From an uncultured virus (IMG/VR IMGVR_UViG_3300024999_000005) (taxonomy: Duplodnaviria > Heunggongvirae > Uroviricota > Caudoviricetes): DNA of 64,000 bases. Where the stretch lies: the IMG/VR virus record IMGVR_UViG_3300024999_000005. One strand, 5' to 3'. The position numbers and the translations under genes were made by a program. The notes under the pieces are model-generated. The model ran no database searches, was not told the DNA's origin, and saw only the letters and a program-made list of their open reading frames with translations. Numbering within the stretch: the first letter of the stretch is position 1; each line of letters starts with the position of its first letter. Below are positions 6,218 to 52,695 of the stretch, piece by piece.

Positions 6218-7068
<851 letters not shown>

Positions 7069-7721: not shown

Positions 7722-7723
7722 CC

Positions 7724-9258: not shown

Positions 9259-9396
9259 CTCACGATCTGTCCGAACATATATAAAAAAGTCAGTGCAACA
9301 ATCCCATACCCAACGGCCTTAGAGGGCAGTTTGTCCTCACCCTCCAACCACTCCTGCACCACAGTAACCATTCGTTCAACCTCAACAACTAACTTC

Positions 9397-10149: not shown

Positions 10150-10336
10150 ATCACTCCCTCAAATAAACTTTACTGTCCCTCGTCGTGTATTCATGTAGTT
10201 TTATGCGTATACACAGTAAAACGCTTTTCGCATTTATTACACTCTATTGTTAATAGTCGCCTGTCTTTCTTAATAACAAAAAGCACATATTGTTCAGTTA
10301 AACAGTGAGGGCACTTCAATTTTTATCCCCCCAGAG

Positions 10337-11113: not shown

Positions 11114-11135
11114 TCCTTCCCGCTCCTTACTTTAA

Positions 11136-25514: not shown

Positions 25515-26999
25515 ATGAAGCGCGGAGCAGTTTATATTAGGGTTTCCCACCTAAAGGATGACGGAGTAAGTCCGGAAACGCAAATGGAAAAGGCGCAACT
25601 ACAAGCAAGTCTATCCTCCATCGACATCGTGAAAGTCTATGAGGACTTGGACATATCAGGCCGATCCGCAACTAAAAGAATAGGCTTTCAGCAACTAATC
25701 GAAGACGTAAAGGGCGGTAAATATGATGTTGTCTTAGTCTACCGCCTTGATCGCTTTGCCCGAAACGTCCGCGACTTCCACCACTACGTCGAAGTCCTAG
25801 AAAAAAATAATTGTAGCCTAATATCTATCAGTCAGAGCATTGACACTGGCTCCCCCACTGGTCGCTTGCTCAGAAATATTTTGATAGACTTTGCCCAGTT
25901 TGAGTCTGAAATGATTTCCGAGCGTGTACGTGATAACATGGTCCAAAACGCCAGGCGGGGATCCTGGAACGGTGGCCAAAAGGCTTATGGCTATGACTGG
26001 GACGATGAACAAAAACTTTTAGTACCAAACGACAACGCAAAATGGGTACTGCTTATGTTCGAAGAATACGCTTCAAATCCGGGTGCAAATCGCATTCGTA
26101 ACCTTTTATATCAGAATGCCGTACAAGCCCCCTCTGACGGCAAATGGTGGGCTCCTACAACAATTCGATATATACTTAGGAACTCTGTTTACATCGGTAA
26201 AATAGAATACGCCGGTGAGGTTGTGGACGGCAAGCATCAGCCTATTATTTCTCAGGATATTTTCGATCGGGTGCAGCACCTTTTAAGCAAGAACAGCGAA
26301 ATGGCACCGCGCAGCAGGGATAGTCAGCACCTACTTTCCGGACTTTTAATTTGTCCTTACTGCGGTCGCCATCTCCAAGCTAGATTTAACGGCAAGAAAC
26401 GAATACGCCGGTATATGTGTTATACCAGGATTAACATGGGAGTTAATGAGTGCAAATGTAAAATACTTGACGCTGATAGTTTGGAAACAGAAATAATTAA
26501 TACTGTACTTACACTTGGCGATTCATTAGGCTATTTTGAGGATGCCAAACAGTCGCTAAAAGAAGTCGCGACAGCTGCAGCAGAAGAAAAGCCTATTATA
26601 GATAAAATGGAAAAAGAAAAAAGGCTTAAGAAAATAAGATCTGCCATGAAAGACTTATTTAAAGATTATTATGAAGAAAAAATTATACCACGGGAGCAAT
26701 TTATGGAAATCAATAAGCAATATCTTGAGGAAGAAAGTCAGTTAGTAAACTATTTAGAAAAGTTAGATCAGATAGATAACCATTTCGCCGCCCAAGCAGC
26801 CGACATAGATCTACTACAAAGACAGCTATCTGCTTTAAGAACAGCTTGGACGCTAATGACCTTCGAGGAAAGGAAAATGTCCCTGAGGGATATTATTAAA
26901 TCTATTTCGCCATATACTGATTATATTGAAATGGATATATTTTTTAGAAAGATAGAAATAATCCCTCAAAAGAATACTGAAACAACTATGAGCTTTTAA
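25515..26999 (+). CDS. Large serine recombinase (phage integrase)
   Basis: YIRVS catalytic motif, DLDISG, RLDRFAR, recombinase domain, LLSGLLICPYCG Zn ribbon, coiled coil. Confidence 0.96.
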   Translation: MKRGAVYIRVSHLKDDGVSPETQMEKAQLQASLSSIDIVKVYEDLDISGRSATKRIGFQQLIEDVKGGKYDVVLVYRLDRFARNVRDFHHYVEVLEKNNCSLISISQSIDTGSPTGRLLRNILIDFAQFESEMISERVRDNMVQNARRGSWNGGQKAYGYDWDDEQKLLVPNDNAKWVLLMFEEYASNPGANRIRNLLYQNAVQAPSDGKWWAPTTIRYILRNSVYIGKIEYAGEVVDGKHQPIISQDIFDRVQHLLSKNSEMAPRSRDSQHLLSGLLICPYCGRHLQARFNGKKRIRRYMCYTRINMGVNECKCKILDADSLETEIINTVLTLGDSLGYFEDAKQSLKEVATAAAEEKPIIDKMEKEKRLKKIRSAMKDLFKDYYEEKIIPREQFMEINKQYLEEESQLVNYLEKLDQIDNHFAAQAADIDLLQRQLSALRTAWTLMTFEERKMSLRDIIKSISPYTDYIEMDIFFRKIEIIPQKNTETTMSF

Positions 27000-27034: not shown

Positions 27035-27040
27035 AATGAG

Positions 27041-27115
27041 TCGGGATGACATGATTCGAACATGCGACCTCACGGTCCCGAACCGTGCGCTCTAGCCAAG
27101 CTGAGCTACATCCCG
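27041..27115 (-). tRNA. tRNA-Pro (anticodon CGG), CCA not encoded
   Basis: CGGGATG/CATCCCG acceptor stem, D-arm, CACGG-TTCGGGA-CCGTG anticodon arm, GTTCGAAT T-loop. Confidence 0.95.
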
Positions 27116-38277: not shown

Positions 38278-39216
38278 TTATTCCTGGTTATCGTCGTCTT
38301 TGTTGCTAAACAGCTTGTCTCCAGGGCCACATCTCCGATGCTCTTCCTGGATATCTTCGGTAAGCATATTCACGTAACGACGAGTCATGTCAAGAGTGGA
38401 ATGCCCCAGTATCTTTTGCAGGGCAAATACTTGTCCACTATTTCGCAAAAACATAAGCGCGAAGGAATGCCTAAAAATATGAGGCCTGACCGATACTTGT
38501 AGACCAGCCAGCTTACCATATTTTCTGAAGCTTGTCCTAATTGATGCAGTTGATATACTTTCCGCTCCTTTTGCAAAAAATATTTTGTTTGTATCGGTCA
38601 GGGTCTGAGCGATAATCCACTGCTTGAATAACTTTTTAGTGTTTTTGCCAAAAGGTACTTGGCGTTCTTTGTTGCCTTTGCCCACCACCTTTATCAAGGA
38701 TTTATTGAAGTCGATATCCTTGATACAAATACTTAATGACTCTGATATGCGCAGGCCAGTGTCGATAAGCAATTGAATAAGCATACTATTTCGTTGGCCG
38801 GCAAAGGTTTCCTGTGAAATAACTGATAGTATTGCCTGCACTTGCTCACCAGTATAGCTGTTGATTATGGCATGTCTGACCTTCAGTGCTTTTAACTTTC
38901 GGGCTGGGTTATCCGGTATCGTTTCAACGACTTCATGGAGATACCTAAATAAACCTCTGATTGACTTTATGGAGTTATTTATAGCTGAAATACTTAGCTT
39001 TCCTGGCTTGCCGTCCATTTTCGGACGGTTGCGCAGATAGAGCAGGTAGTCATATATGATTTGCTGGGTGATTTCTTCAATGGTTAGTATTCCAGCGTCG
39101 GTCAGAAACTTTTTGAACTGCCTAAGTGAAACGCGGTACCACTCCAAGCTGTTGACGGAGTACCCTTGTCCTCCAAGGTACGTCATTAGATCTTTCATAG
39201 CCTTTTCTATGTCCAT
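38278..39216 (-). CDS. Tyrosine recombinase (XerC/D-like)
   Basis: TGLRISE, GKGNKER, PHIFRHSFA, LGHSTLDMTRRY. Confidence 0.95.
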   Translation of the reverse strand: MDIEKAMKDLMTYLGGQGYSVNSLEWYRVSLRQFKKFLTDAGILTIEEITQQIIYDYLLYLRNRPKMDGKPGKLSISAINNSIKSIRGLFRYLHEVVETIPDNPARKLKALKVRHAIINSYTGEQVQAILSVISQETFAGQRNSMLIQLLIDTGLRISESLSICIKDIDFNKSLIKVVGKGNKERQVPFGKNTKKLFKQWIIAQTLTDTNKIFFAKGAESISTASIRTSFRKYGKLAGLQVSVRPHIFRHSFALMFLRNSGQVFALQKILGHSTLDMTRRYVNMLTEDIQEEHRRCGPGDKLFSNKDDDNQE

Positions 39217-39357: not shown

Positions 39358-39867
39358 CTATATCCATGATTTTGAATATTCCCTGTTCTTGAAAAGCGCA
39401 GCCAGACCGGTAATTTGCTTTAGCCTCAAAAGCTCATCTACATCCATACCGAGATGCTTAGCAATCCAGGAATCAGATTTGCCCATTTCAACAAGCTCGG
39501 CCACGATATTGCTCATCAAGTCAATGTTATGCGTACCCCTAGCGCGGTTGTGGCGTATTGTTGAAGCCATCCTATCACTGATTGGTTTATCGATCACAGA
39601 TACAGGCAAACAGCCATTCTCGCGATCATAAATATCCTTATGTTTCAACATAACGCTGTAGCGGTGAAACCCGTCAACAATCTCATATGTATCATCAGAC
39701 GGATTAAAGTAACAAACTATTGGCATTGTATAGCCATCTTCTTTAATTGAGTCATAAAGAAGTTTCATTTCGGGTGGAGCTACGGCATTAGGATTCCAAG
39801 CATTTGCCCTAATATTTTTAATTGGCACGGCAATAACATTGTAAACTGGGCTCTTAAACGCTTTCAT
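39358..39867 (-). CDS. ParB-like nuclease-domain protein (IbrB-like)
   Basis: ANAWNPNAVAPPEM.LL..SI..DGYTMPIV, IVDGFHR, STIRHNRARG. Confidence 0.9.
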   Translation of the reverse strand: MKAFKSPVYNVIAVPIKNIRANAWNPNAVAPPEMKLLYDSIKEDGYTMPIVCYFNPSDDTYEIVDGFHRYSVMLKHKDIYDRENGCLPVSVIDKPISDRMASTIRHNRARGTHNIDLMSNIVAELVEMGKSDSWIAKHLGMDVDELLRLKQITGLAALFKNREYSKSWI

Positions 39868-40267
39868 TTGAACCATACTCCTTTGCATACTCAGTAAAGC
39901 TACCTCTCTTCTTACTCTCCATAAAACCTTCATCAGCTATCATTTCCATTAAATATTTATTCTTCGTTGTCATAGTAACAACGCCTTTAATATCCTTAAT
40001 TGCACTGTTAAATAGCTGGCGAAAAACACCTTGTTGCCGGTACTTTTCAACGACATAGCAACTACCGATCTGATAATGTGCTTTTGTTTTCTCCCAAAGA
40101 TAACAAAACCCCACGACCTTTTTTAATTCAAGAGCAGTAATCCACACTTTTCCGTCATCGTCGTATATCTTGTAGCCAATTTCGCGCTCAACGTCACGAC
40201 GGGCCAGAAACGGCCCCAGTGTGGAGTAAAAGCTTTTGTCCTGGTTTGTTAGTCTAATTATCTTCAT
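39854..40267 (-). CDS. GNAT-family acetyltransferase
   Basis: VVGF...IGSCYVVEKYRQQGVFRQL acetyl-CoA motif. Confidence 0.75.
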   Translation of the reverse strand: MKIIRLTNQDKSFYSTLGPFLARRDVEREIGYKIYDDDGKVWITALELKKVVGFCYLWEKTKAHYQIGSCYVVEKYRQQGVFRQLFNSAIKDIKGVVTMTTKNKYLMEMIADEGFMESKKRGSFTEYAKEYGSNESV

Positions 40268-40279
40268 GGACGGTACCCC

Positions 40280-41575
40280 CTACAAATTTCGGTACTTTTC
40301 TATCAGCTGTCGTTGCCGCTCTGCCTGGTTCTTGATTTGGGCAAACGACAATCCTTTGCACAGGTGGTCATTTTTAAGGATGCACATGGCCATCCTACGC
40401 CAAGTAGGAGCATAGTGTTTGCTTTCAATATCGCCGTCAAGGCTATCTTCTATTTTCCTGTACCTAACGACACGTTTATCCTTATTCCCTCTGGTAGCTA
40501 TCTTATCCGTTACAACAGCGGAAGGGGGCAGTTTGCTAAAGCATTCACTTGGCAACCCACACCCGTTTCTATTCCAATATCTCATAAAACGGATAAACCG
40601 GCTAACATAGTTCTCCCTGGTTTCGGGTGGAAGTGATGCAAGTAAAAGCTTTGTGTAGCTTTTCCACGTATGCCCGGCCGGTAGCTGTACCTGACGATAC
40701 CCTAATGCCTTAGTACCACAATAAATATTACCAAAGTTTGCCCCGGATACACGATTAACTACCCTGGCCCATGTCTCGGGTTCGATAACCCGGAACAGAT
40801 TCAGCCCGATCCGTTGGTCATCACCATAGGGCTGGCAAATCCGCATATCGTGGATGCCGACACCGGCCTTGTAAAACAGATCATAGAGTTTGTTATATTC
40901 CCACCCGTTTTTACCATTGGCGGTCCAAATATCTTCAGTTCGCCAATCGTAAATTGGATAGCAATTGTAAAGATTCTCGTCTATCTTCGTTGTCCAGTTT
41001 ATGCCGCTATAAGTCTCTTTACTGTCGCTTACAATTGTTCTGAATCGGTTAAGGCTTTCATCGGAACGTATGCCTACCAGGCAAGCAGTCTTTTCTCCAC
41101 CAGAAAACCACTTGCCGAACTTCGGAACGAATTCTTCAAATTCCATTCTGTACTGATAGAACGGAAAGAATTCCTGATCTTTTATAACCGGATAGTCAGG
41201 AAATTGCCTAATCCATCTATCTTCTAGTCCTGGCTCCCAGCAACACCAGAACGGCTGATAGACTGACACAGCATTGCGCAGATTTAGCGGCAAGCATGCC
41301 CAGTATGGTTCTATCAAGTCAGCATTGTCCGTAAGCATGGTATGTATGTAATTTATGGTTTCTTGATACTGACCTTCCAGATCAACAACAAGAACCCCGA
41401 TTTTATTCGTTATCCCGTTTTTACGCATATAATCAAGGACAAGGTTCAAAACAACCCCGCTGTCCTTGCCGCCGGAAAAGGAAACATACACCTTTTCGAA
41501 CTCTTCGAAAATAGTTTTGACGCGTTCCAGTGCTGCTTCATACACGTTCTTTTTGAGATACTTTTTCTTACTCAC
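40280..41575 (-). CDS. PAPS-reductase/DUF3440 protein (IbrA-like)
   Basis: SFSGGKDS PP-loop, GIRSDESLNRF, PIYDW, MRICQPYGDDQR, ILKNDHLCKGLSF. Confidence 0.92.
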   Translation of the reverse strand: MSKKKYLKKNVYEAALERVKTIFEEFEKVYVSFSGGKDSGVVLNLVLDYMRKNGITNKIGVLVVDLEGQYQETINYIHTMLTDNADLIEPYWACLPLNLRNAVSVYQPFWCCWEPGLEDRWIRQFPDYPVIKDQEFFPFYQYRMEFEEFVPKFGKWFSGGEKTACLVGIRSDESLNRFRTIVSDSKETYSGINWTTKIDENLYNCYPIYDWRTEDIWTANGKNGWEYNKLYDLFYKAGVGIHDMRICQPYGDDQRIGLNLFRVIEPETWARVVNRVSGANFGNIYCGTKALGYRQVQLPAGHTWKSYTKLLLASLPPETRENYVSRFIRFMRYWNRNGCGLPSECFSKLPPSAVVTDKIATRGNKDKRVVRYRKIEDSLDGDIESKHYAPTWRRMAMCILKNDHLCKGLSFAQIKNQAERQRQLIEKYRNL

Positions 41576-43008
41576 AGCGACATAATCAACTCCTTTAGAC
41601 GGTCTTTTTTATATTTGACCTTTTCAACCTCCCTCCGGAAACTATTTACAGTATTGCCCTTTTGGGCTAAGTTTTCAGCGATTCTTTCGTCAATACTGTT
41701 CGAACAGCGAATATCAATATAGGTTACCTTATTGGTCTGGCCAATCCGGTGATTCCGATCTTCCGACTGCAGTCGTTCGCTGTATTTAAACGAGTTATTA
41801 TAGAAAATAGTATAATGTGCCTCATTTAAGGTTAGTCCATGCCCGCCGGTCTTGGCGGTACCAACAAAGAATCTATTTCCGGCATGAAATCTAGCTTCTT
41901 CGGCGTTACGTTGCTTTTCTGATAACCCACCATGATACAAACTAAACCCCTGGTCGGCAAAATTGGCCTGCAGCATATCGGCGATCTGTTGGATGTCATA
42001 TGTATATTTTGCCCAAATAATAAATCTTGTGTCACGCGGTACGCTATAGATCGTTTCGAGTAAGGTGCTCACCCGGTCATGCTCAAACCTCATTTTCTGA
42101 TAATGACCCCGACTAATCCTCCGATTCCAAAACCCGCAGACGATACCCTGCAGAGCAGTGAACAGTCTAAAGATCGGAATAGAATCGTCATCGTCCTCCA
42201 GGAGATCGGCAAGGATTTCCTCCTTTGCCCACTCATAATGCTGCCGCTGTTCGTAACTCATACTGAAATACCTAGTTTCGTAAAGTTTCGACGGAAGATC
42301 AAGGCATTCCTCCTTAGTAACCTGGTAAATGTAAGGTTTTATTTTCGCGGCCAGGTACTCAACATTGTGAGCACGAACAATCATGCCCGGATACTTTTCC
42401 GAATACTCCAGGTGATTCGCCGCGAAAGAGTAAAACGACTCGTAACCCAAAATCTTGGGAGATAAAAAACGCATTTGCGCAAATAGATCAACTACTCCCT
42501 GAGACAGCGGAGTACCGGTTAAGATGAGTCGGTACCGTGCGCGTTTGCATAATTCCGTAATCCGCAACGTCCGCATTGAGCGGTGACCCTTGATGTATGA
42601 CGATTCGTCCAAGATAACCATCGTACTCTCGGTAATAAGCTTATTTACAGTCAAGACCACGCGGGTACTGCTACTCATTGACTCAATCCCTACAACATAC
42701 CAAGGCACGCTTGGGACGTTGCTCTCATTTGTCCTGTCTCCAAATACGCAAATGTCACTGTCTATACAGTCAGTATGCTTGAGTATCTCCTGTCTGACCG
42801 TTTCCTTTAGGCTAACCGGGCAAAACCAGATTACCTTGTCAATTTTGGTTTTGCGTCGGTCAACCAGTTCAATTGACATGCGCGTTTTGCCAGTACCCAT
42901 GTCGCAGAATAGACCGCCAATACGAGACGGCAGCACTTTCTCAACAGCAGGTACTTGGTGCGGCAACAGTTCGGTTCTAAGATTCACACTTAACATAGAC
43001 CAGATCAA
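41572..43008 (-). CDS. SNF2-family helicase/ATPase
   Basis: DMGTGKT, LDES, LTGTP, GGHGLTL, QSEDRNHRIGQ. Confidence 0.93.
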   Translation of the reverse strand: MIWSMLSVNLRTELLPHQVPAVEKVLPSRIGGLFCDMGTGKTRMSIELVDRRKTKIDKVIWFCPVSLKETVRQEILKHTDCIDSDICVFGDRTNESNVPSVPWYVVGIESMSSSTRVVLTVNKLITESTMVILDESSYIKGHRSMRTLRITELCKRARYRLILTGTPLSQGVVDLFAQMRFLSPKILGYESFYSFAANHLEYSEKYPGMIVRAHNVEYLAAKIKPYIYQVTKEECLDLPSKLYETRYFSMSYEQRQHYEWAKEEILADLLEDDDDSIPIFRLFTALQGIVCGFWNRRISRGHYQKMRFEHDRVSTLLETIYSVPRDTRFIIWAKYTYDIQQIADMLQANFADQGFSLYHGGLSEKQRNAEEARFHAGNRFFVGTAKTGGHGLTLNEAHYTIFYNNSFKYSERLQSEDRNHRIGQTNKVTYIDIRCSNSIDERIAENLAQKGNTVNSFRREVEKVKYKKDRLKELIMSL

Positions 43009-43177
43009 GTTTGATACGAGGGTGATCTGGTCTAATTAAGCAAAAGCAGGTGACTCCTATTCTTCCGATGTTCTGACAACCGCTAAATTTACCGACGGTT
43101 TTGTATTTATCGCAGGTTTTAGCTAAATTGCACTCTTCGTGCGCGTCATAAAGTCCGCCGTCTTCTTTTATGAGCAT
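42977..43177 (-). CDS. Small Cys-rich protein
   Basis: GGAGGGG RBS; 66 aa. Confidence 0.45.
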   Translation of the reverse strand: MLIKEDGGLYDAHEECNLAKTCDKYKTVGKFSGCQNIGRIGVTCFCLIRPDHPRIKLDLVYVKCES

Positions 43178-43189
43178 GACTTACCCCTC

Positions 43190-44326
43190 CTAATCCCTAA
43201 ATTCATCTGCAATATTCATATCAATAGGAACCTCCAAGACGGGAGGCTTGCCGATGGCAACCACGCAATCTTTTTCCGCTGGCGGCGCGACAATTACGGT
43301 AAGTATGCTCTCCCATGCCTGCCGTGCTAAATCTATTGCCTTCTGCGCACCTGACGAGATCCTAAAGTCATACATTTGTGCGAAGTCCAGTACCTCGGCA
43401 AAATGCTCGGGGGGAACCACAACATCGGGTTTGTCATATCGACTACCGTTAATACCCTTTGCAGCACGGTAGAAGTCTTCTTTCTTGCTCCACCGTACCA
43501 CTAGGTGACCAGCATAACCGCCTGTAGTGCGGCACATAATCCAGCGGGTATGCTCTGGCTCATATGTGCCGTCGATGGCCTTCTGCCGTGTCTCATCGTC
43601 AAAGATTCTAACAGGGAACCCAGCAGCAAGCAGTCTGTGCCCTGCCTCAGATGCACGATCTGCCGGAGTGCCGTTGTGCTTCGCTATTTTTCTTCTCCAG
43701 CACAGCCCGGTCCAATCCATACTCAATTTTTCCTTTACAATTTCCCGAAAGTCGTCGCGCTTCTCGGGAAAATATATTTCCATGCTTTTTTCAAGTGCTC
43801 GGATTTCCGCTACAGTTTCGGTGACGGTGTTTTCAGGCCTGACAGTCGCCTCTATTTTAACAGCGTCGGTAAGCACCTGTGGCGGCTTATCCTTCTGCTG
43901 TTTGGCAGTGTTGAGCAGTAGAGTTTCAAGCATCCGCAATGACATATCACGGCGGTCAATCCACCAACTCGCTGACTCGATCTGTTGTAGGTGGTCAAGT
44001 CCGGTCATTAGATCAGCGCGTTGCTCATCGGTGATATTTCCATGCAGGAATCCTTCTGCCCGGAGCAATATCTCCTGGCGTATTCGCTCTGCCCAGGCCA
44101 CTTGTTTTTCAGTTCCATCGAGTGCTGGCAACTCCATTTCTTTCGCTGCCTCGATAGCTTCGGCGGTGGCCTTTTCACGCTGGCGTTCAAGTTCCGCATG
44201 GTAACAGGTGTGGCATAACTTGTTTGGTTCGACGTTCTCCAGTCGCCACTCCCGTAGTTTGTGCTTACCAATAAGGTTAACTGTTTCCTCATGCCCGCAA
44301 GCACGGGTAACGTTGTATTGGGCCAT
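43190..44326 (-). CDS. Zn-finger plus LxGxEKQxxWA protein with possible HARP-like C-terminal domains
   Basis: ACGH...CHTC; LDGTEKQVAWAERIR; GGAGGTG RBS. Confidence 0.75.
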   Translation of the reverse strand: MAQYNVTRACGHEETVNLIGKHKLREWRLENVEPNKLCHTCYHAELERQREKATAEAIEAAKEMELPALDGTEKQVAWAERIRQEILLRAEGFLHGNITDEQRADLMTGLDHLQQIESASWWIDRRDMSLRMLETLLLNTAKQQKDKPPQVLTDAVKIEATVRPENTVTETVAEIRALEKSMEIYFPEKRDDFREIVKEKLSMDWTGLCWRRKIAKHNGTPADRASEAGHRLLAAGFPVRIFDDETRQKAIDGTYEPEHTRWIMCRTTGGYAGHLVVRWSKKEDFYRAAKGINGSRYDKPDVVVPPEHFAEVLDFAQMYDFRISSGAQKAIDLARQAWESILTVIVAPPAEKDCVVAIGKPPVLEVPIDMNIADEFRD

Positions 44327-44353
44327 GCTTGACACCTCCAACGAACTCTAAGA

Positions 44354-45211
44354 TTAAATATCCCCAAACCTTAAGGTCTGCTTAAAATTAATCGGCAGTA
44401 CAAGGTAGTCATTGCCAGCTCCGCCGCCATTTGATTTGGCAACGCGACGGTATAGACTTCCTTCGGGCCAACTTCTAAACCCACGCGAACTATCAAAAGC
44501 ACCGCCCCAATTTATTTTGATGAGCATATGCGGGGCTTTATCGCGATCCATTTCCTCAAAGCAGTTAGTGCCTTTCTTGCTCTTAAAGAAACGACCAAAC
44601 TTAAACCCCATGTTGCCAGAAAAAGAGACATTAAGACTGCCTTGAAGTTCGGTATCGGCTGCATAATCAAATGCTTTTAACAACCTGTCCTCAGTGAAAA
44701 TTAGAGACAGATTGGGCCTGTACTTGCCGCCGTCGTTAACGAGATACTTTCCGTCATCAAGCTTGAAAGTATTCTTGCCTAAGTGGAGCCCTTTTGACTC
44801 CAAAAACAACGGTATGGACAGTTTTAAAATCTGCTCGTAAGCATCCTGAGCGTCCAAATCGACAGGAATGCCATAGCGGTTTAAGTGGCTTATGACGGTT
44901 TTTTTGGAGTAATAATGACCGAAAGAATTAGTAAAATAGTGGTGTACTTTACCTGTTCGATATCCTTCATACACCTTTTTGCGAAGCTCTTCAAAGGGTG
45001 CCAACTCAACGAACAATCCTTTTGAAACTTCACAAATTTTTTCATATACATCTGTATCATCCAAGTTGAACTCAAAACCGTAATTTTTGAGGATCTGTTC
45101 AACACTATCTCTCCCAAATCCTCTTTCTCTGAAGCATTCGTTGATGTAGTAGTGGACTTCTCCGGCTTCAAAACCAGCGAATACCCTGACACATAATTCA
45201 TCAAAATTCAT
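44354..45211 (-). CDS. Hypothetical protein with an internally duplicated N-terminal unit
   Basis: G.VH.Y...F......V...L..YG....LD..D.YE.I occurs twice. Confidence 0.7.
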   Translation of the reverse strand: MNFDELCVRVFAGFEAGEVHYYINECFRERGFGRDSVEQILKNYGFEFNLDDTDVYEKICEVSKGLFVELAPFEELRKKVYEGYRTGKVHHYFTNSFGHYYSKKTVISHLNRYGIPVDLDAQDAYEQILKLSIPLFLESKGLHLGKNTFKLDDGKYLVNDGGKYRPNLSLIFTEDRLLKAFDYAADTELQGSLNVSFSGNMGFKFGRFFKSKKGTNCFEEMDRDKAPHMLIKINWGGAFDSSRGFRSWPEGSLYRRVAKSNGGGAGNDYLVLPINFKQTLRFGDI

Positions 45212-45277
45212 AATTACCCCTCCCCTATTTTCAATCCCACCACCCCCGCCCGTATCTAAACGGGCAGAGATAGTAGA

Positions 45278-45463
45278 CTAAAGTTTCATAATGGCCTCAC
45301 GAATCCATAATATTGCCACATCCAGGTTGGTAAAAATAAGTGACTTTTCTCTACCAACTGGAAACTCAGCTTCAATTGCCACATAAAGAGCATTCAGCGC
45401 TTTTTTGGTTTCGGGAACTTTTGCCAATTGTTCTTCTGTGGGTTTAATATCTAGATTAATCAT
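45278..45463 (-). CDS. Acb2/Tad1-like helical-hairpin protein (candidate cyclic-nucleotide sponge)
   Basis: PTEEQ...L...I...FPVGREKSL.FTNLD.A..W...AI pattern; AAGGAGGTG RBS. Confidence 0.6.
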   Translation of the reverse strand: MINLDIKPTEEQLAKVPETKKALNALYVAIEAEFPVGREKSLIFTNLDVAILWIREAIMKL

Positions 45464-45494
45464 ATGTATCACCTCCTTAGCTTAATCTTGCGGA

Positions 45495-46226
45495 CTAAAA
45501 CGGCCAGTCCACAGCGACAATCTGCCTCTCCTTCCAATTGGCGTTGTGTGTTGCTACTACCACCGCCCCAATCTTTGGATCAAAGGTGGCTGCAGCACCG
45601 GCAGCGGATCCGTGCGCTTGATGTAGGGCTAAGCCATACCTCCAAATAGGTGCCCGTCCACCGATGACCAACAGGGATCCGCGGGGAATTTCCGGCATGA
45701 CTGGCAACGGATCTGATGGTGTACAGGGGCCATCTACGCCAATACTCCAAAATACGGGACCTTCTACTGTAATCGGCCTGGTGGGATTGAATTGCTCTGC
45801 AAGTTCCCAGCGTGCTCGGGCATCGGCAACGCTCTGTTTAAATCTGTCTGTGGGATTCGGGATGTTCAAAAACCCTTCCACGATAGCATCCCAGACATGG
45901 TATCCAAGAGTAAAACCGGCAGGCATTTTTGGGTATTCGTCTTGCTCCGAGACTACGCCCATGACAAATATGCTGTCCTCCTCCACATTATCCGCGACAA
46001 TGTGGGCATAGCGCAGATTGTTGGCACTGCTGTGAGTAGACATATGCTTAATTAAGACAATGCCATCACACAGGGAAACGCCACCTTCGGTATAGCTCCA
46101 CTTTCCGTTCTTGTGGTATTGTCCTTCCCAATTGATGTAGTCGATTTTCTCTACAGCAGGTTGTCCGTTCAACTTCAGTACTGCGACAACAGCAGTTCCG
46201 TCAGCGTCGTTTACGCTTAATTTCAT
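45495..46226 (-). CDS. Csx3/Crn3-like ring-nuclease domain fused to an unknown N-terminal domain
   Basis: LLVIGGRAPIWRYGLALHQAH...TFDPKIGAVVVATH matches the Csx3 pattern VVISGRGPIW...H...YDPRLGAVVV.SH. Confidence 0.8.
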   Translation of the reverse strand: MKLSVNDADGTAVVAVLKLNGQPAVEKIDYINWEGQYHKNGKWSYTEGGVSLCDGIVLIKHMSTHSSANNLRYAHIVADNVEEDSIFVMGVVSEQDEYPKMPAGFTLGYHVWDAIVEGFLNIPNPTDRFKQSVADARARWELAEQFNPTRPITVEGPVFWSIGVDGPCTPSDPLPVMPEIPRGSLLVIGGRAPIWRYGLALHQAHGSAAGAAATFDPKIGAVVVATHNANWKERQIVAVDWPF

Positions 46227-46290
46227 AACTATTCCTCCTTTTTATTTTTTCCTGGCAGGGCTTTTTCGGCTAACCCCAAGCCTGGGAAAA

Positions 46291-46776
46291 CTAAAAGACC
46301 GACTCTGCTGCTGTTTTGCCGTCCGGGTAGTAGAAAATCAAGCGTTTCTCACTGTTCGGGCACTGCTTTTTCAAACGCTTCCAGTCCTCCTGACACGTGA
46401 TATTCCAATGGATCAGGCGGATGTGGCCTCCATCGTTGTACCCTGCGACAGCGTGGACTTTGACTACATTAACAAGCATTTCTTGAAAGGTAAGTTCCTT
46501 CGTAAGAAAGTAAAACTGTCCGGATACCTGATATTCTTGGCATAATTCTCCCTGATAGTTGAAATCAATACCGTCCTTGTGGACATATGCCTGGTATGCG
46601 CTGGTTTCCTCGATGAAATCACAATGGAAGTAGGGCGACAGGTTTGGACTGTCATTCCATTCTGTACGATTAAATCCACAGGAAAACTGGAATCCTGTAG
46701 CTTTTGGGTATTCTTTTAAAATGGCATCTATGACCATTTTTTTCTGCCAATCTTGACTGATTTGCGCTGTTAACAT
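46291..46776 (-). CDS. Hypothetical protein (Acr-like context)
   Basis: AGGAGG RBS; 161 aa. Confidence 0.7.
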   Translation of the reverse strand: MLTAQISQDWQKKMVIDAILKEYPKATGFQFSCGFNRTEWNDSPNLSPYFHCDFIEETSAYQAYVHKDGIDFNYQGELCQEYQVSGQFYFLTKELTFQEMLVNVVKVHAVAGYNDGGHIRLIHWNITCQEDWKRLKKQCPNSEKRLIFYYPDGKTAAESVF

Positions 46777-46805
46777 TTCTATTCCTCCTATATATTTATT
46801 TTAGA

Positions 46806-46833
46806 TTAGGCCAGGCAACCCGCCCGACCTAAC
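46806..46833. repeat. 28-bp hairpin repeat, copy 2
   Basis: Identical to 34887-34914. Confidence 0.95.
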
Positions 46834-46844
46834 TTTTTTGCGTT

Positions 46845-47477
46845 CTACCAGGTGTGGTTCCAGGATTTCTTTACTCTACCGTCTGGCATTGCGTGCTCAT
46901 AATGGTTATCCCAGGAGCATTCTTCCCGTGGGTCACAGCATGGGGCACTCCAACTACTCAACAATACGGGCTTACCAGTTTCTCTAGCTTGGTCAAATTT
47001 CTCTTGACGTTCAGCGTATTTCTTCCGAATAGCCTCTGTTTTTGCCTCAATCATCGGACTTGCATATAAAGCGGCCTGCGGGTAGGTGAACTCTTCGCCC
47101 AGTGCTTCAACGGCTTTAAGGTCTACATGACAACCCCAACCGCTAACATAATTTGCAATCCCTAAACCCATTAGAACCTCTGCTGCCTGCCCAGTAGCAA
47201 AGTGACCACTCAGATGCTCGCCATCATGATATTTCAGGTGGATGGCTTTTTCTCCAGCAAGGATAGCCTGTTTCTCTGCTTCTTTCTCCGCCAGTTCCCT
47301 GGCTTTTAGTTCAGCCTTCTCCTGTTCCCGACGTTGCAATTCTGCAATGATTTCCGGCTTTGCTGCTACGAGCATGTCGCGTGTTTTCTGAGAAAGCTTC
47401 TTTGCGTTCGAAACCCTGATTTGACCTTCAATGTGTAGGGTGATGTTGTATTTTTTAATTAATTCAGTTGCTGTCAT
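46845..47477 (-). CDS. Hypothetical MGE protein with a Cys-containing C-terminal domain
   Basis: KPEII.EL N-terminal motif; ARETGKPV...CCDPREECSWD...AMPDG...HTW. Confidence 0.7.
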   Translation of the reverse strand: MTATELIKKYNITLHIEGQIRVSNAKKLSQKTRDMLVAAKPEIIAELQRREQEKAELKARELAEKEAEKQAILAGEKAIHLKYHDGEHLSGHFATGQAAEVLMGLGIANYVSGWGCHVDLKAVEALGEEFTYPQAALYASPMIEAKTEAIRKKYAERQEKFDQARETGKPVLLSSWSAPCCDPREECSWDNHYEHAMPDGRVKKSWNHTW

Positions 47478-47562
47478 TTTCATATCCCCTTTCATATTTT
47501 CAACCCTTGAACTGGGGAGGCTTTTAGCCTCCTGCCGGGATTCTCGGCATTCCCTTGGCGGG

Positions 47563-47850
47563 TTAATTATTTATTTGCCAGTCATAAACCCTCTTCCCTT
47601 CGGAAAAGAATTTTTCGGTAAGATATACGGTTGTAGTGTATTCCATGCCACCATATGCAGGGCGGCAACTTCCGTCAGTCCAATCTACGTTCGGAGAAAT
47701 TGTAACTGCTTGGTAATTTCTATGGTTGAAATTGCAGTCTGAGATCTTTAAATCATAACCTTTACTGCAATCAAGCTCCATGTTTCTAGGATTTCCATAA
47801 ATAATATTTTGCGGAACCCCAAGACTTGTCAATAATTCACTTACTACCAT
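47563..47850 (-). CDS. Hypothetical protein
   Basis: AGGAGGT RBS. Confidence 0.65.
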   Translation of the reverse strand: MVVSELLTSLGVPQNIIYGNPRNMELDCSKGYDLKISDCNFNHRNYQAVTISPNVDWTDGSCRPAYGGMEYTTTVYLTEKFFSEGKRVYDWQINN

Positions 47851-47924
47851 AATCTCGACCTCCTATTAAGTTTTCCTTGCACACCCCCGACGATTTGTCG
47901 GGACGCTCCGGCCTAAGTGCCTTT

Positions 47925-48047
47925 TTATACTCGCCGGGACGAGTTCATCATCTCTTCTATATCCTCTTGTGACAGTATCGGTTCTGGTTTCCTGCCCTGG
48001 TATCCTTCTAGGAGTCGGTCTATTTCTTCCAGAGCTAGCATTGCCAT
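47925..48047 (-). CDS. 40-aa acidic peptide
   Basis: MAMLALEEIDRLLEGYQGRKPEPILSQEDIEEMMNSSRRV; G-rich RBS. Confidence 0.45.
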   Translation of the reverse strand: MAMLALEEIDRLLEGYQGRKPEPILSQEDIEEMMNSSRRV

Positions 48048-48129
48048 GTGTGTACCCCCACCCTCGTATTTAGTTTTAACCTCTTACTCAAATCCCTGCT
48101 AATCAAGGTCCTGAGTGAGGGATTAAACG

Positions 48130-48414
48130 CTACCCCTTGTACTCTTTCTTCCACTCCTTGTATATTTCTTTGACTTCTTCTGCATCCCCCTTATGATAGA
48201 TATCATTTATGCTATCACCGTACTCCCCGATCTCCTCATATGACCATGGGCAACCCGAGAAATTGTAACCAGCTTCACTTAGGTATTTTTCTAGATCATC
48301 ACAGGCAGCCTCTGCCAGCAGAGTTGTCTTAGCCGTGAATGTTATTTGTACACTCCTACCATCTATCTTGCCGTCCAAGTCCCTACACACTAGATATTCA
48401 AATTTTGTCCTCAT
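48130..48414 (-). CDS. Small acidic protein (Acr-like)
   Basis: GGAGGT RBS; D/E-rich. Confidence 0.65.
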   Translation of the reverse strand: MRTKFEYLVCRDLDGKIDGRSVQITFTAKTTLLAEAACDDLEKYLSEAGYNFSGCPWSYEEIGEYGDSINDIYHKGDAEEVKEIYKEWKKEYKG

Positions 48415-48429
48415 TCTCTCGACCTCCAA

Positions 48430-48600
48430 CTACTCTACGACCTTTACATACAGGTCAGCAAGTTTGATTTCAAGTTCCTTTTCGCCGGCAAATCTGGCAA
48501 CCCGTATTAGCTGCGAGACTCTGCCTGCTAGATAGCTTTTAGGTGATTTGCCTATATCGGCTGTGATGTCGGCCATTTGCTGTTGGATAAATTCTTGCAT
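48430..48600 (-). CDS. 56-aa first gene of the accessory operon
   Basis: AAGGAGGT RBS; hand translation MQEFIQQQMADITADIGKSP... Confidence 0.6.
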   Translation of the reverse strand: MQEFIQQQMADITADIGKSPKSYLAGRVSQLIRVARFAGEKELEIKLADLYVKVVE

Positions 48601-48636
48601 CCGTTTTGACCTCCTTTGATTTCTGTCTACACCCTT

Positions 48637-48676
48637 ATCTTACAGCATTCTATGATATATGTCAACACCATAATCA
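48637..48676 (-). promoter_or_regulatory. Strong sigma-A promoter of the 48.6-39.4 kb operon with an adjacent 12-bp operator
   Basis: TTGACA(48665-48660)-17-TAAGAT(48642-48637); ACACCATAATCA at 48665-48676 recurs at 48947-48958. Confidence 0.75.
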
Positions 48677-48716
48677 AAGATTTTTTAAAATTGGGCAAAA
48701 AAATGCCCCGGAATCT

Positions 48717-48905
48717 CTAGGACTCCAAGGATTTTTTACGAACATATTCGCTCGCTGAAATATTTTCTTTTTTCGCTTTCTCCAATACTATCTCCCACTC
48801 AGGATCGGTGTATTTAATATGATGGGATTTATATTTTTCTTCCGGTGGTTTTGGCGGTCGGCCGGATCCCGTCCTGGCTCCACCGCGCGGGGAACACATA
48901 AGCAT
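48717..48905 (-). CDS. GGxRxGSGRP-motif ribbon-helix-helix regulator (Aca-like)
   Basis: RGGARTGSGRPP...YTDPEWEIVLEKAKKENISASEYVRK; own promoter TTGTAT-17-TATACT. Confidence 0.75.
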   Translation of the reverse strand: MLMCSPRGGARTGSGRPPKPPEEKYKSHHIKYTDPEWEIVLEKAKKENISASEYVRKKSLES

Positions 48906-49285
48906 AGAATCACTCCTTTTCATGATAGTATACATGAAAATAGTATACACCATAATCATAAAAGATACAAATAATGATTTCCTAGCCTTTGATGAGCTTT
49001 TCGTTTGGCTAGGAAAAGGGCAGGCAATGCATTGACAGGACAATCTGATAAGTGATAATATAGCCAAGTCACTCTTTGAGGGGAGGTAAGAACATTGACT
49101 AAAGAATAGATAGATGAGATTTTGGAGAGCATTGGTTTAGAGGAAATTAGAGGGGAAGAATAAGCCTGAGGCGGATTAACCCAACGCCTTTGGTTTATTT
49201 TTTTCCTAAAAATAAAAAAGCCCCGGCAACCGTCAACATTTCTTTGACAGTTCCGAGGCACAAAAGTAATTCGCGTTATGTTATT

Positions 49286-49759
49286 TTAACCTAATTTTTT
49301 CAAAATAACCCCTGCAGAAAAGTTAGCTATTTGTTTCTGCAACTGTTCAATTGACGCCTCTACCCCTGATTTTAGCTGATCGAATTCAGCAGTAACAACC
49401 ATGTCGGTAGTTTGCGCTGTGGCGGTGGTAGTGTCTGTAGTGTTCCAAACTTTCTTCACTTCGGCCAGGGCATCATGTATAAGGCTGTCCCATTTATCGT
49501 CCGACAAATTAATTCCTGCCTGCTTGCCTAGACCACGCGCCCTTAATATGGCCTCGCTTAATTTATCTTCTCCCTTAATACCCTTTAATGCTGCGTATTG
49601 CTCAACTGCAGAAATAGCAATACTGGCAATATCTTTTGCATCTTTAATCTGTTTCGCGGTAAAGTGCTGGCGTAGGTAGTACATACCCATTGTAAGTAAT
49701 ACGCTGATTAACGACTTTACTGCAGTACCCATATCGGGAGTAAACTGACTTTGATCCAT
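49286..49759 (-). CDS. Holin, LL-H-like
   Basis: One N-terminal TM, A..AVEQ...G.DK..EA motif; next to the lysin. Confidence 0.75.
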   Translation of the reverse strand: MDQSQFTPDMGTAVKSLISVLLTMGMYYLRQHFTAKQIKDAKDIASIAISAVEQYAALKGIKGEDKLSEAILRARGLGKQAGINLSDDKWDSLIHDALAEVKKVWNTTDTTTATAQTTDMVVTAEFDQLKSGVEASIEQLQKQIANFSAGVILKKLG

Positions 49760-49834
49760 TTACGCATACCTCCACTTTTAATTTTAAAGCCAACCCAGCA
49801 CATGGCCAGGGCTAAACTCTATTTAAACGTAAAA

Positions 49835-50647
49835 CTACTTTGAATAATACTTCAGCATTGCCACCATAACAGCGTCCACAATCCGCGAACGATATGTCGG
49901 ATCGTGCAGCTTAACTTCTTCGCCTGGGTTAGTGATAAAACCAGCCTCTATAATTAGTGTCGGTATGCCGGTTTTTCTGAGTAACCACAGTCCGGGACGC
50001 TCCCAGGTGCCCTTGCCATGCAGCGGGATCCCTGTTGCTTGTACTTCATCCCGAATCATCTCGGCTAATTTCCATGCCTGACTACTCTGACCATATGACA
50101 GATCTTCAAACCCACTGGCTTTTGCATCTCCAGCGTTGTTATGCCAACTGGTGAACAAATCGGCATTCGGGTATTTTTGTTTAATCAAAGCCGGCTGTTT
50201 GGAGTAATCAATTGACTGCTCAATCCAGATCACCTTTGCGCCCTGGGCTTCAAGTTTTGCTTTATGCTCCAGAGCAAAAAGCAAGTTGATGTCCTTTTCT
50301 AGAGTATATAAGGTATCCCCTTCTGCCGGGTTAATCCCGTCCACTGCACCAGGGTCCCCACCCGCACCATGACCAGCTGCAATAATGAATGTGCGACCGG
50401 CTAAACTACTTCCTACCTGACTGGCTTTCTGTGGTGCGCTACCACTAATCAGCGCCCGAATTTTTGCCTGGGTCTGCGGGCCAACAACACCGTCTACCGT
50501 CAAACCGTATTTCTGCTGGAATTTTAAAACGGCATCTTCGGTTTTGCTCCCGAATATGCCGTCAGATGAACCTGGACTTAAGCCAAGTCTAGTTAAGTTT
50601 TGCTGCAGTTCTTTTACGTCCACGCCTTTAGATCCACGTGCTAACAT
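49835..50647 (-). CDS. Endolysin: PG-binding domain plus N-acetylmuramoyl-L-alanine amidase (Amidase_3)
   Basis: GSKG.DVKELQ..L...DG.FG..T..AV..FQ; AGHG, EK, SWHNNA, IEAGFITN. Confidence 0.93.
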   Translation of the reverse strand: MLARGSKGVDVKELQQNLTRLGLSPGSSDGIFGSKTEDAVLKFQQKYGLTVDGVVGPQTQAKIRALISGSAPQKASQVGSSLAGRTFIIAAGHGAGGDPGAVDGINPAEGDTLYTLEKDINLLFALEHKAKLEAQGAKVIWIEQSIDYSKQPALIKQKYPNADLFTSWHNNAGDAKASGFEDLSYGQSSQAWKLAEMIRDEVQATGIPLHGKGTWERPGLWLLRKTGIPTLIIEAGFITNPGEEVKLHDPTYRSRIVDAVMVAMLKYYSK

Positions 50648-51063
50648 TTTTTATCCTCCCCTTTACCATCTTTGTTTTTTAGTACCTCCAATGTGTTTTT
50701 CAAAACTGCAGGTAGAGGAATGCCCACCCTGCCCGCATTCTCCAGTATGGACAGACCTTCTATGCCCAAATAAAAGCCGACTACAGAATTACGCATTAGC
50801 TGCGTACTAGTTAGTTGATCAACCTTAAAGGCCACAGCCACAAGCATAAGTATTAAAACCTTTTTAGCCACACCCTTAAAGCCTACCCGACTACTCAACC
50901 TGCCCTCTATGCCTGATGCTAGTAACCCGCTGGCATAGTCCAGCACGATAAAAAACACTAATGCCCTTAGTAGCGCGTCCCACCCGCCCAGTGCTTGGCA
51001 AAGGGAACTGCCAACTGCAGTTCCAAGCACTCCCGCGCATACTTTTATTCTATTGAAATCCAT
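50641..51063 (-). CDS. Holin (phage holin 4_1 / toxin-secretion family)
   Basis: LGGWD...DYASG...SSRVGFKG..KK...EGLSILENAGRVGIPLP. Confidence 0.9.
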   Translation of the reverse strand: MDFNRIKVCAGVLGTAVGSSLCQALGGWDALLRALVFFIVLDYASGLLASGIEGRLSSRVGFKGVAKKVLILMLVAVAFKVDQLTSTQLMRNSVVGFYLGIEGLSILENAGRVGIPLPAVLKNTLEVLKNKDGKGEDKKC

Positions 51064-51222
51064 GAAATCATCTCCCGGTAACCAAATAAAAATAACCTCC
51101 GAAGAGGTATACATAGGTATACTTGTATACTTTTTGTATACCTCAAATATTACGCGTAAAAACAATTAATGATTATGTAAAGGAGAGCCTTCGCCCTCCT
51201 TATAATTAAGCAACTAGATAGA

Positions 51223-51903
51223 TTAGATAGACCAGTTGCCTGCCTCGTCTTGCACAAATACCTTAATGACGTTAACACCCTCAGCACCAGCAGTCTCTAA
51301 ATCTGCGCCGTCTAAGGTGCATTCAATGTCAGTGTCTGCAGCATACCCGCCTGCACTACCTGACATATTCACAGAGCCATTTACTACTCCAATCAAGGTA
51401 CCAGAGGCATGTCCATCACCGGCATTAGCTACTACCATAACCTCGTAAGCCTCAAACCCTTCGTCAGAGCGGAAGCTGAAGGTAGTTACGCGCTTACCGG
51501 TTACCTTGGAAATCTTGGCCGGAGTCGGGCCACCAGTAATCGTAATAATGGGTGAAGTAGTGTCCAAGATAATGGTGTCGGTTGCGACAGTTGATTCGTT
51601 TAAAACATCGTCACGCAATCTTAAGTTAATAGTCTTAGTACCGTCACCGGCAGACCACTTAATTTGCTGAGACGTGCTGAAACTTATCCATTCAGAATCT
51701 TCCTCAGCAGTCTGGATATTTACGTTTTCAGACTCGTCAACGTCTCCCCAAAGCTTCATTTGGTACCCAGTCGTAATTACATCGTCAGTGCCAATAGTGC
51801 TGTTGCATAATAGAGATGTTGAATAGGTTGCTCCACCATCAAGAGAAATACTTGGATTTGCCGGACCACTCATGTCTAAATTCACCTCAATACTACTTGC
51901 CAT
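51223..51903 (-). CDS. Virion-associated Ig-like protein
   Basis: LDTT.P, D.AGN.S Ig-fold motifs; acidic and beta-rich. Confidence 0.65.
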   Translation of the reverse strand: MASSIEVNLDMSGPANPSISLDGGATYSTSLLCNSTIGTDDVITTGYQMKLWGDVDESENVNIQTAEEDSEWISFSTSQQIKWSAGDGTKTINLRLRDDVLNESTVATDTIILDTTSPIITITGGPTPAKISKVTGKRVTTFSFRSDEGFEAYEVMVVANAGDGHASGTLIGVVNGSVNMSGSAGGYAADTDIECTLDGADLETAGAEGVNVIKVFVQDEAGNWSI

Positions 51904-51948
51904 TTTAAATCCCTCCCCTATTTAGTTATATTAATTGACCCTTACGGA

Positions 51949-52695
51949 TCAAATTATGAACACTCGAACTTTCATTCTGAGCAAAACAGACCTTGCTATA
52001 TTGACACTTGACGTTTCGGTAGCGTCGTTATGCACCTCATCGCGAAAACTAGCAGTTACCAGGGCAGTACCGACAGACAGTACAGAACTGCTAATCATGC
52101 CCTGCCACGTTCTCTTGTTAACGAAATAACCAGTGACGACATGACTATTACCGGCAGAATCTTTAATGACAACCTCCTGCCAGTTATCCAAATCCTCACT
52201 GCTCGTAACATGAACCGCAATATCCTCGCCTTTTACCACGCTGACAGGCGCAGTAATATTCAGAACAGGAGCTATAGTGTCAAGATAGACAGAAAGAAAA
52301 CCAGATGCAATAACGTCAATACTGAAACTAATTTCTGCACTATTCGAGTATGGCACAACGAAGCCAGTTTCTAGACATAGGGCCTCACCAACCTCAACTG
52401 TGAAAGCTGTTTCAAGGGACAGGACATTGCCTGTCTTAAGCGATACCTCAGCGTCATTTAGCCATGGTACTGCAAAAGCAGTTTCTAGTCCTAGAGCTTC
52501 GCCGACTTCAACAACAAATCTAGTCTCTAGTGCCAGAATCTTTCCGACAGCTAAATCTATTTCCCCATTGTTTGTCCATGGCACAACGAAGCCAGTTTCT
52601 AGACATAGGGCCTCACCAACCTCAACTGTGAAAGCTGTTTCAAGGGACAGGACATTGCCTGTCTTAAGCGATACCTCAGCGTCATTGCTGTACAC
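51949..52695 (-). CDS. Tail-associated protein with 38-aa tandem repeats and an Ig-like end
   Basis: Three NDAEVSL...LETGFVVP units. Confidence 0.65.
   Translation of the reverse strand: MYSNDAEVSLKTGNVLSLETAFTVEVGEALCLETGFVVPWTNNGEIDLAVGKILALETRFVVEVGEALGLETAFAVPWLNDAEVSLKTGNVLSLETAFTVEVGEALCLETGFVVPYSNSAEISFSIDVIASGFLSVYLDTIAPVLNITAPVSVVKGEDIAVHVTSSEDLDNWQEVVIKDSAGNSHVVTGYFVNKRTWQGMISSSVLSVGTALVTASFRDEVHNDATETSSVNIARSVLLRMKVRVFII
52350..52686. repeat. Exact 109-bp direct repeat (52350-52458, 52578-52686)
   Basis: Identical copies 228 bp apart with a diverged middle unit. Confidence 0.9.

Follow-up and report, generated by a model that had tools for sequence, protein, structure and literature searches.

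A phage-borne Csx3/Crn3-type domain fused to a rare N-terminal module: a candidate antagonist of type III CRISPR signalling

The window analysed here is the whole stretch of 64,000 nucleotides of an uncultured virus (IMG/VR record IMGVR_UViG_3300024999_000005), a large temperate phage from groundwater. At positions 45495..46226 on the minus strand it carries a gene whose product joins an N-terminal domain of an uncharacterised family to a C-terminal Csx3/Crn3 domain, and which had been proposed from the sequence alone to be a ring nuclease acting against type III CRISPR immunity (hereafter, the original prediction). Among the sequencing runs there are six of DNA, all groundwater metagenomes and four of them possible sources, and none of RNA. 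The list of open reading frames (ORFs) returned the gene exactly at this position, with 243 amino acids (aa), an ATG start and the stop codon included, and a Shine-Dalgarno ribosome-binding sequence, GGAGG, was read at 46234..46238 on the same strand, 7 nt 5' of the ATG. The protein consists of three parts, all encoded on the minus strand. The N-terminal domain (aa 1-146, hereafter N-domain; 45789..46226) was delimited by phmmer, alignments and an AlphaFold2 (AF2) model, and the complete Csx3/Crn3 domain (aa 158-243; 45498..45755) by PF09620, the PDB alignment, homologues and AF2/Foldseek. Between them, a linker (aa 147-157, NPTRPITVEGP; 45756..45788) fills the gap between the end of the stand-alone N-domain proteins and the start of the stand-alone Csx3 proteins. 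No support was found for the plus-strand ORFs overlapping the gene. The fusion protein is 100% identical in its nearest record, a related 70.5-kb IMG/VR virus record (G001); at the DNA level, positions 39777-52226 of the window match a second IMG/VR contig (L002) with 100% identity, and positions 39777-47515 are 99.8% identical to G001 (locus L003). Since identical copies occur in these records, the fusion frame is unbroken in more than one assembly.

The C-terminal 90 residues or so had been described as following the Csx3 pattern, and this was confirmed by both sequence and structure comparisons. The Pfam profile PF09620 (Cas_csx3) matched with an E-value of 5.2e-14 and 52.3 bits against a gathering score of 21, with aa 177-233 aligned to positions 18-73 of the 78 of the profile, while a phmmer search of the PDB sequences retrieved only the Archaeoglobus fulgidus Csx3 (AfCsx3) chains (6vjg, 3wzi and 6yud), with E-values from 1.8e-5 to 1e-4. 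When the domain was searched alone (aa 151-243), 416 of the 427 candidates were homologous at E<=1e-3. The best of these, which stand alone and measure 87-105 aa, show 60-74% identity over about 91% of the query, and several close homologues carry the source name CRISPR-associated ring nuclease Crn3/Csx3. The window protein retains all of the invariant columns (20/20) of a 20-sequence Csx3 alignment, with which the His residues and the D-P-x-x-G-A-V-V-V segment highlighted in the original prediction are aligned. As the stand-alone proteins begin only 2-8 residues ahead of the VFWSIGVD strand of the window protein, the domain is complete. The AF2 model of aa 151-243 showed a predicted local distance difference test (pLDDT) value of 86.2 and was compared with the PDB by Foldseek: the top 10 matches were all AfCsx3, with a probability of 1.00, template modelling (TM) scores of 0.64-0.69 and root-mean-square deviations of 2.2-3.1 Å, and the first row other than Csx3 was the cyclic tetra-adenylate (cA4)-bound Cat1 filament (chain 9mud, E-value 0.41). 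By sequence, residues and fold, the C-terminal part is a complete and orthodox Csx3/Crn3 domain.

The residues on which Csx3 function depends are known from AfCsx3, in which the H60A and D69A variants are inactive, R71A and H80A are highly reduced and H57A is reduced; R71 is absolutely conserved and clamps a phosphate, and the enzyme requires Mn2+ and holds cA4 between adjacent dimers, one of which contributes its D69 face and the other its H60 face (PMC7371418). Residues were mapped by counting along the phmmer alignment of the PDB chain to the window protein. H57, H60, D69 and H80 of AfCsx3 correspond to the identical residues H202, H205, D216 and H227, all of which fall in invariant or nearly invariant columns, and R71 is replaced by a lysine, K218, so that four of the five functional residues are kept. 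Among 127 proteins with the D-P-x-[LIVM]-G motif, the R71 position is occupied by Arg in 119, by Lys in 7, the window protein included, and by Ser in 1. Lysine at this position is a minor natural variant.

The N-terminal 150 residues had been reported as unrecognised, and they remained so: aa 1-150 matched no Pfam, NCBIfam or PHROG family, and a Pfam search with 20 members of the family likewise gave nothing meaningful. A phmmer search of 1.84 billion representative sequences found 28 proteins matching the N-domain at E<=1e-3. Most of them stand alone, measure 136-147 aa and can be aligned over their full length, finishing at the F146 column; larger relatives contain three to four tandem copies (P0011, P0012 and P0019), and two very large proteins yield many short matches. 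The conserved core consists of W-x-G-x-Y-H-K-N-G-K-W-S-Y-x-E-G-G together with S-T-H, P99, W140 and F146. The two domains were modelled separately, the combined alignment having placed the last ~45 residues of the N-domain homologues on the Csx3 domain, and the N-domain model, built from 20 sequences, reached a pLDDT of 95.4 and showed seven strands followed by two helices. Foldseek found no convincing relative of this fold in the PDB (best E-value 0.096) or in BFVD (best E-value 0.036), and the best match in a VIA-align comparison over 48,161 chains was HAT1 with a Z score of 5.4, below the usual chance level of 7-8. A profile search of the PDB gave a best E-value of 0.68, and ESM Atlas returned no usable match. 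The structural comparison of each domain called for in the original prediction thus placed the C-terminal domain with AfCsx3 but left the N-domain without a structural match. A prediction of a two-copy N-domain complex returned a score of 0.00 (mark 0.42), which is not evidence either way. The idea that the N-domain is a diverged Csx3 was ruled out by hhalign (probability 0.2%).

The N-domain is therefore an independent module of a rare, mostly stand-alone family of about 140 aa, and in the fusion protein two families, each of which exists alone, are cleanly joined. As the 11-residue linker falls exactly between the two stand-alone families, the N-domain was probably a neighbouring gene before the fusion; the linker also has the length of a short intergenic spacer, as would be expected if two adjacent genes had been fused. 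Other Csx3 fusions were observed as well. P0010 is a natural fusion with a Fic domain (PF02661), in which the R71 position is Ser, and the N-terminal parts of two others (P0005 and P0006) contain a R-N-D-I-E-H stretch, which is reminiscent of the R-x4-H motif of HEPN proteins. The N-termini of P0003 and of the Csx3 ORF of L010 were considered as relatives of the N-domain and ruled out by hhalign (0.6% and 0.4%, respectively).

The distribution of the N-domain was then evaluated in three collections. Within IMG/VR, it occurs only in this phage lineage, and a search of phage records with P0013 gave no match. Two cases were found in GTDB genomes, one in a Melainabacteria and one in a Saccharibacteria metagenome-assembled genome (MAG). 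In the Saccharibacteria MAG (L005) it forms the C-terminus of a 440-aa HD-domain protein (HD E-value 2.8e-5; hhalign probability for the N-domain 98%, E-value 1.9e-13). The Melainabacteria MAG (L004) encodes a 731-aa protein with three to four tandem copies, flanked by a DEAD/DEAH helicase on one side and, on the other, by a 478-aa protein that matches DHH (E-value 0.009) and HD (E-value 0.003) weakly (3856-11340 of that locus); this may be a cellular system built on the N-domain. Metagenome contigs gave 10 matches, one of which is the 70.5-kb contig itself (L014), and another (L023) was dropped as a chance motif match inside a recombinase. Eight stand-alone loci remain (L015-L022), and the contigs that carry six of these measure 1.1-1.4 kb. 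One (L016) is phage-like, with a large terminase, a primase/helicase, a resolvase and an O-like initiator, and another (L017) carries, about 600 bp upstream of the N-domain gene, an ORF of the PF08960 family (STIV_B116-like, the AcrIII-1/Crn2 family). The assignment of this ORF rests on an E-value of 1.5e-28 and 99.3 bits against 26, and on PDB matches to AFV3-109 (2j6b, E-value 5e-22) and to SIRV1 gp29-type chains. The other neighbours of the stand-alone genes belong to no recognisable family and do not resemble one another: an all-against-all blastp of 42 neighbour ORFs gave no pair at E<=1e-3, and PDB searches of four of them revealed no ring nuclease. The N-domain thus recurs beside or fused to phosphodiesterase-type enzymes, namely in the Csx3 fusion, next to the AcrIII-1-family gene of L017 and in the HD fusion of L005.

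The genomic context of the fusion gene was established along the entire window, which is phage DNA throughout and is co-linear with G001 over 54,218 of its 64,000 bases, at 80-99% identity. The first 22 kb (1-22 kb) encode a DnaB and a UvrD helicase, a G39P-like loader, an SMC-like ATPase and three DNA methyltransferases. At 22.8-27 kb, helix-turn-helix (HTH), ImmA-like peptidase and serine recombinase genes form a lysogeny module next to a tRNA-Pro, and the region from 49.3 to 64 kb contains genes for the tape measure, the baseplate (Baseplate_J, gp25-like and Mu gp48-like) and tail fibre-like proteins, along with those for two holins and an amidase endolysin. The fusion gene belongs to a long string of genes on the same strand that follows the lysis cassette and also includes the 61-aa gene next to it, two unknown genes and those encoding an SNF2 helicase, a PAPS-reductase/DUF3440 protein, a GNAT protein, a ParB-like protein and a tyrosine integrase. 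The absence of cas genes and of a CRISPR array from the window, as claimed in the original prediction, was upheld: a Pfam scan of 74 other window ORFs (40 + 34) returned no cas domain, and the search for repeats found no CRISPR-like array or repeats in the window. The nearest baseplate proteins of cultured phages are less than 40% identical and belong to phages that infect Brevibacillus, Geobacillus, Clostridium and others; the hosts of these relatives, together with the strong GGAGG sites, suggest that the host would be a member of the Bacillota.

The Csx3 part of the gene has a GC content of 0.556, and its GC at third codon positions (GC3) is 0.495, similar to that of the neighbouring phage genes. 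Since GC3 matches the neighbours, the higher GC of this part is due to its amino-acid composition. The proposal that the phage captured a host off-switch holds in so far as the gene is phage-borne and lies outside any CRISPR locus, but the direction from host to phage found no such backing, GC3 giving no hint of a recent capture.

Csx3 genes were also found on mobile elements other than this phage. When IMG/VR was scanned for the pattern of the Csx3 alignment, eight loci emerged, two of which are this phage and six others 54-70% identical. The six are stand-alone and code for 88-96 aa; one may have an N-terminal extension, and another (L013, 1861-2049) is apparently broken, its Csx3 frame stopping early, after about 53 codons. 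No cas domains were found in the flanks of these six contigs, which contain HTH, RadC, pentapeptide-repeat, ThyX, Macro and DHHA1 genes. A tblastn search against 72,556 plasmids gave one match, an 18-kb Pyramidobacter record that is itself phage-like (holin, Rha, integrase and LexA-type repressor) and in which crn3, annotated by the Prokaryotic Genome Annotation Pipeline, is the second gene after a cro-like HTH gene. The fusion protein had no tblastn match in 50,697 GenBank phage records. As for published surveys, 28,114 phage genomes have been scanned with profiles of Crn1-3, Csx15, Csx16 and Csx20 (Hoikkala et al. 2025, PMC12409355), and the available part of that paper counts AcrIII-1 in 36 phage genomes, Csx20 in 4 and Csx16 in 2, with no mention of Crn3. 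A viral Crn3 is likewise not mentioned in the available parts of PMC13148439 and of preprint 10.64898/2026.10.26.761840. The literature, searched by title and start of abstract, gave no report of a phage-borne Crn3, and supplementary survey tables could hold matches. Within the literature searched, as far as its available parts go, Csx3/Crn3 is a ring-nuclease family not yet reported from phages.

On these grounds we read the fusion protein, with moderate confidence, as a viral Crn3-type ring nuclease that removes cA4 and thereby blunts type III CRISPR signalling, bearing an accessory domain of a new family. The C-terminal domain would bind cA4, which Cas10 of type III CRISPR systems produces as a second messenger, and would cut it with Mn2+ to linear di-adenylate; the cA4-activated effectors (Csx1, Csm6, Can and others) would then be kept off during phage replication, or in the prophage state when transcripts are targeted. 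By homology to AfCsx3, its dimers would be expected to sandwich cA4 head to tail, with H205 (AfCsx3 H60) on one face and D216 (AfCsx3 D69) on the other. The N-domain may assist the nuclease, either by binding nucleotides through its conserved patch of Trp, Tyr, His and Lys residues (W33, Y37, H38, K39, K42, W43 and H65) or by drawing Csx3 dimers together.

Several points weigh against such an assignment. The NCBIfam model TIGR02579 (ring nuclease Crn3/Csx3) matched over positions 31-82 of 83 with 45.4 bits, below its equivalog cut-off of 55.4, and the product is therefore filed as a Csx3-family-domain protein and not as a Crn3 equivalog; the check with Csx3 profile hidden Markov models suggested in the original prediction thus had a divided outcome, PF09620 being above its gathering score but TIGR02579 below its cut-off. 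To judge from the sequence, the lysine at the R71 position may lower catalysis. A domain of the Csx3 type can also serve to sense cA4 and not to cleave it, as in Cat1 (preprint 10.64898/2026.10.26.761840). The PF08960 neighbour occurs in only one of the eight stand-alone N-domain loci from metagenomes, and the product of the gene that follows the fusion gene matches the Acb2/Tad1 hairpin profile PF24729 with an E-value of 4e-5 and 24.2 bits, below the cut-off of 27. Moreover, an anti-CRISPR role would presuppose a host type III system that signals with cA4.

The following gene (45278..45463, minus strand) encodes 61 aa and is a candidate Acb2/Tad1-hairpin-like protein. It begins 31 nt past the last base of the fusion-gene stop codon, with its ATG at 45463 behind an AAGGAGG of its own. 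Its product also matched phrog_1454 (E-value 6e-6), and its neighbours in ESM Atlas were clusters of 67-71-aa viral proteins, 40-86% of which carry PF24729, with similarity scores of 0.90-0.91 and structural TM values of 0.81-0.82. Searches in the PDB and in phage records gave no match, and no close database homologue was found. Acb2 and Tad1 are cyclic-nucleotide sponges, and a 61-aa protein of this type, paired with the fusion gene in anti-signalling, is a lead and not a claim of membership.

A bolder proposal, which we regard as possible though doubtful, gives the N-domain a larger part. It would represent a hitherto unrecognised fold, with cyclic oligonucleotides as ligands or substrates, that serves as a partner of signal-degrading enzymes, having been joined independently to Csx3 in this phage, placed beside an AcrIII-1-family nuclease in L017 and fused to an HD phosphohydrolase in L005. 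The fusion protein would then be a two-headed anti-signalling enzyme with a reach beyond cA4, and the 61-aa Acb2/Tad1-like neighbour might be a third tool.

The replacement of R71 by Lys also raises the question of turnover, and the protein might be a cA4 sponge, in which the sandwich is kept, turnover is slow or nil and the signal is mainly sequestered, possibly with the aid of the N-domain. The R71A variant of AfCsx3 is highly reduced (PMC7371418), Csx15 is a good cA4 sponge and a slow nuclease (PMC13148439), and the next gene resembles a sponge-family hairpin, although below the PF24729 cut-off. However, the equivalents of H57, H60, D69 and H80 are all retained, and a lysine preserves the charge and recurs naturally in 7 of the 127 proteins; furthermore, it has been argued that sequestering is ill suited to the high quantities of cyclic oligoadenylate produced by type III systems (PMC13148439). 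We hold a sponge to be unlikely.

Less probable still is a cA4-activated effector carried by the prophage, with the Csx3-type domain as sensor and the N-domain as output, which would act as defence cargo for the type III CRISPR system of the host in the manner of Cat1. Its architecture, a sensor-like domain plus an unknown domain, is compatible with this scheme, as are the further Csx3 fusions with Fic (P0010) and with other N-termini, the weak Foldseek match to Cat1 (E-value 0.41) and the re-assignment of the cA4-binding domain of a TIR effector to the Csx3 family (preprint 10.64898/2026.10.26.761840). On the other hand, the C-terminal domain shares 60-74% identity with stand-alone Csx3 ring nucleases and has their catalytic residues, and the N-domain mostly stands alone with no sensor attached, so that it needs no control by cA4. 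Its proximity to an AcrIII-1-family gene in L017 speaks for counter-defence. Finally, an enzyme for RNA 3'-ends or deadenylation, or a degrader of other oligonucleotides, cyclic or linear, serving phage RNA metabolism and not CRISPR, is very improbable: AfCsx3 was indeed first described as a Mn2+-dependent RNA deadenylase, the window has no CRISPR context and the operon includes a self-cleaving Pistol ribozyme, but the family has been re-assigned to cA4 cleavage (PMC7371418) and this proposal is without positive support.

Returning to the ring-nuclease reading, the fusion protein can be compared with the known systems. With A. fulgidus Crn3/Csx3 (AF_1864; PDB 3WZI, 6VJG and 6YUD) and the bacterial stand-alone Csx3 proteins it shares the Pfam family, the fold and the H57, H60, D69 and H80 residues; it differs from them in being a phage product without neighbouring cas genes, in the additional 146-aa N-domain, in the Lys at the R71 position and in its TIGR02579 score below the equivalog level. 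AcrIII-1 (DUF1874/PF08960; cellular form Crn2) has the same job that is proposed here, namely the virus-borne destruction of cA4 that blunts type III CRISPR, but the two are unrelated in sequence and fold, and the fusion protein has no PF08960 match at E<=10. AcrIII-1 is metal-independent. In contrast, Csx3 requires Mn2+ and two dimers (PMC7371418). Csx16, Csx20, Crn4b and AcrIII-2 (a viral SAVED protein) are cellular ring-nuclease families that have also been reported from phages, in which they are infrequent and presumed to be anti-CRISPRs, and they belong to different families. As for the Acb2/Tad1 sponges, the PF24729 hairpin is shared with the 61-aa neighbour at a sub-threshold level, the neighbour being only 61 aa long and lacking a PDB match.

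Among the ways known for viruses to defeat the signalling arm of type III CRISPR, ring nucleases are the main one. Published surveys of phages, in their available parts, list AcrIII-1, Csx16, Csx20, Crn4b and a viral SAVED protein and do not name Crn3. A phage-borne Crn3 would therefore add a metal-dependent, tetramer-forming family to the viral ring nucleases and would show a cellular off-switch moving between hosts and viruses. The N-domain is the most interesting part. Since its fold is predicted with high confidence, neither solved nor viral predicted structures include a recognisable relative, and it occurs in the company of three different phosphodiesterase-type enzymes, it is a well-defined target in the search for a new nucleotide-binding or nucleotide-degrading module.

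The surroundings of the fusion gene showed some further features. The gene array had been called strongly promoted, a description that was not sustained: a consensus scan of 44000-49800 gave 16 promoter-like sites against 10.4 +/- 2.9 in shuffled sequences, an excess of about 2 standard deviations. One candidate promoter, TTGACA-17-TAAGAT at 48637..48665 on the minus strand, was found by the consensus scan alone, which is not evidence of function; it directly follows a terminator-like hairpin (48730-48706) and is a possible start of the gene string containing the fusion gene. Within the same string, a full-length Pistol self-cleaving ribozyme was detected at 47879-47944 on the minus strand (Rfam RF02679, 58.8 bits against 34.5, E-value 3.9e-8, model positions 1-68 of 68), between the ORFs 48130-48429 and 47563-47850 and about 1.7 kb upstream of the fusion gene. 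The block 39777-47515, which includes the fusion gene, is 99.8% identical in two phages, and the adjoining DNA on the lysis side is only ~80-83% identical or unalignable. The block looks like a recently exchanged cassette, with its boundary at the start of a 216-aa ORF (46845-47495).

Directly downstream in the string, positions 39358-43008 on the minus strand encode the ParB-like protein, the GNAT acetyltransferase, the PAPS-reductase/DUF3440 protein and the SNF2 helicase, a set that may constitute a DNA-modification or anti-restriction module. The window carries two recombinases, a large serine recombinase (25515-26999, plus strand) beside the tRNA-Pro (27040-27115, minus strand) and, 11 kb away, the tyrosine integrase (38278-39216, minus strand). 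The stretch between them encodes a 937-aa phrog_5156 protein, a DUF7678 protein and a DUF2325-like protein, and the arrangement may represent either a single phage or one into which an element has been inserted. The three DNA methyltransferases (C5, D12-class N6 and MT-A70-like) lie in the replication region, at 1718-4252 and 7308-7721 on the minus strand, and fit a phage well equipped against restriction.

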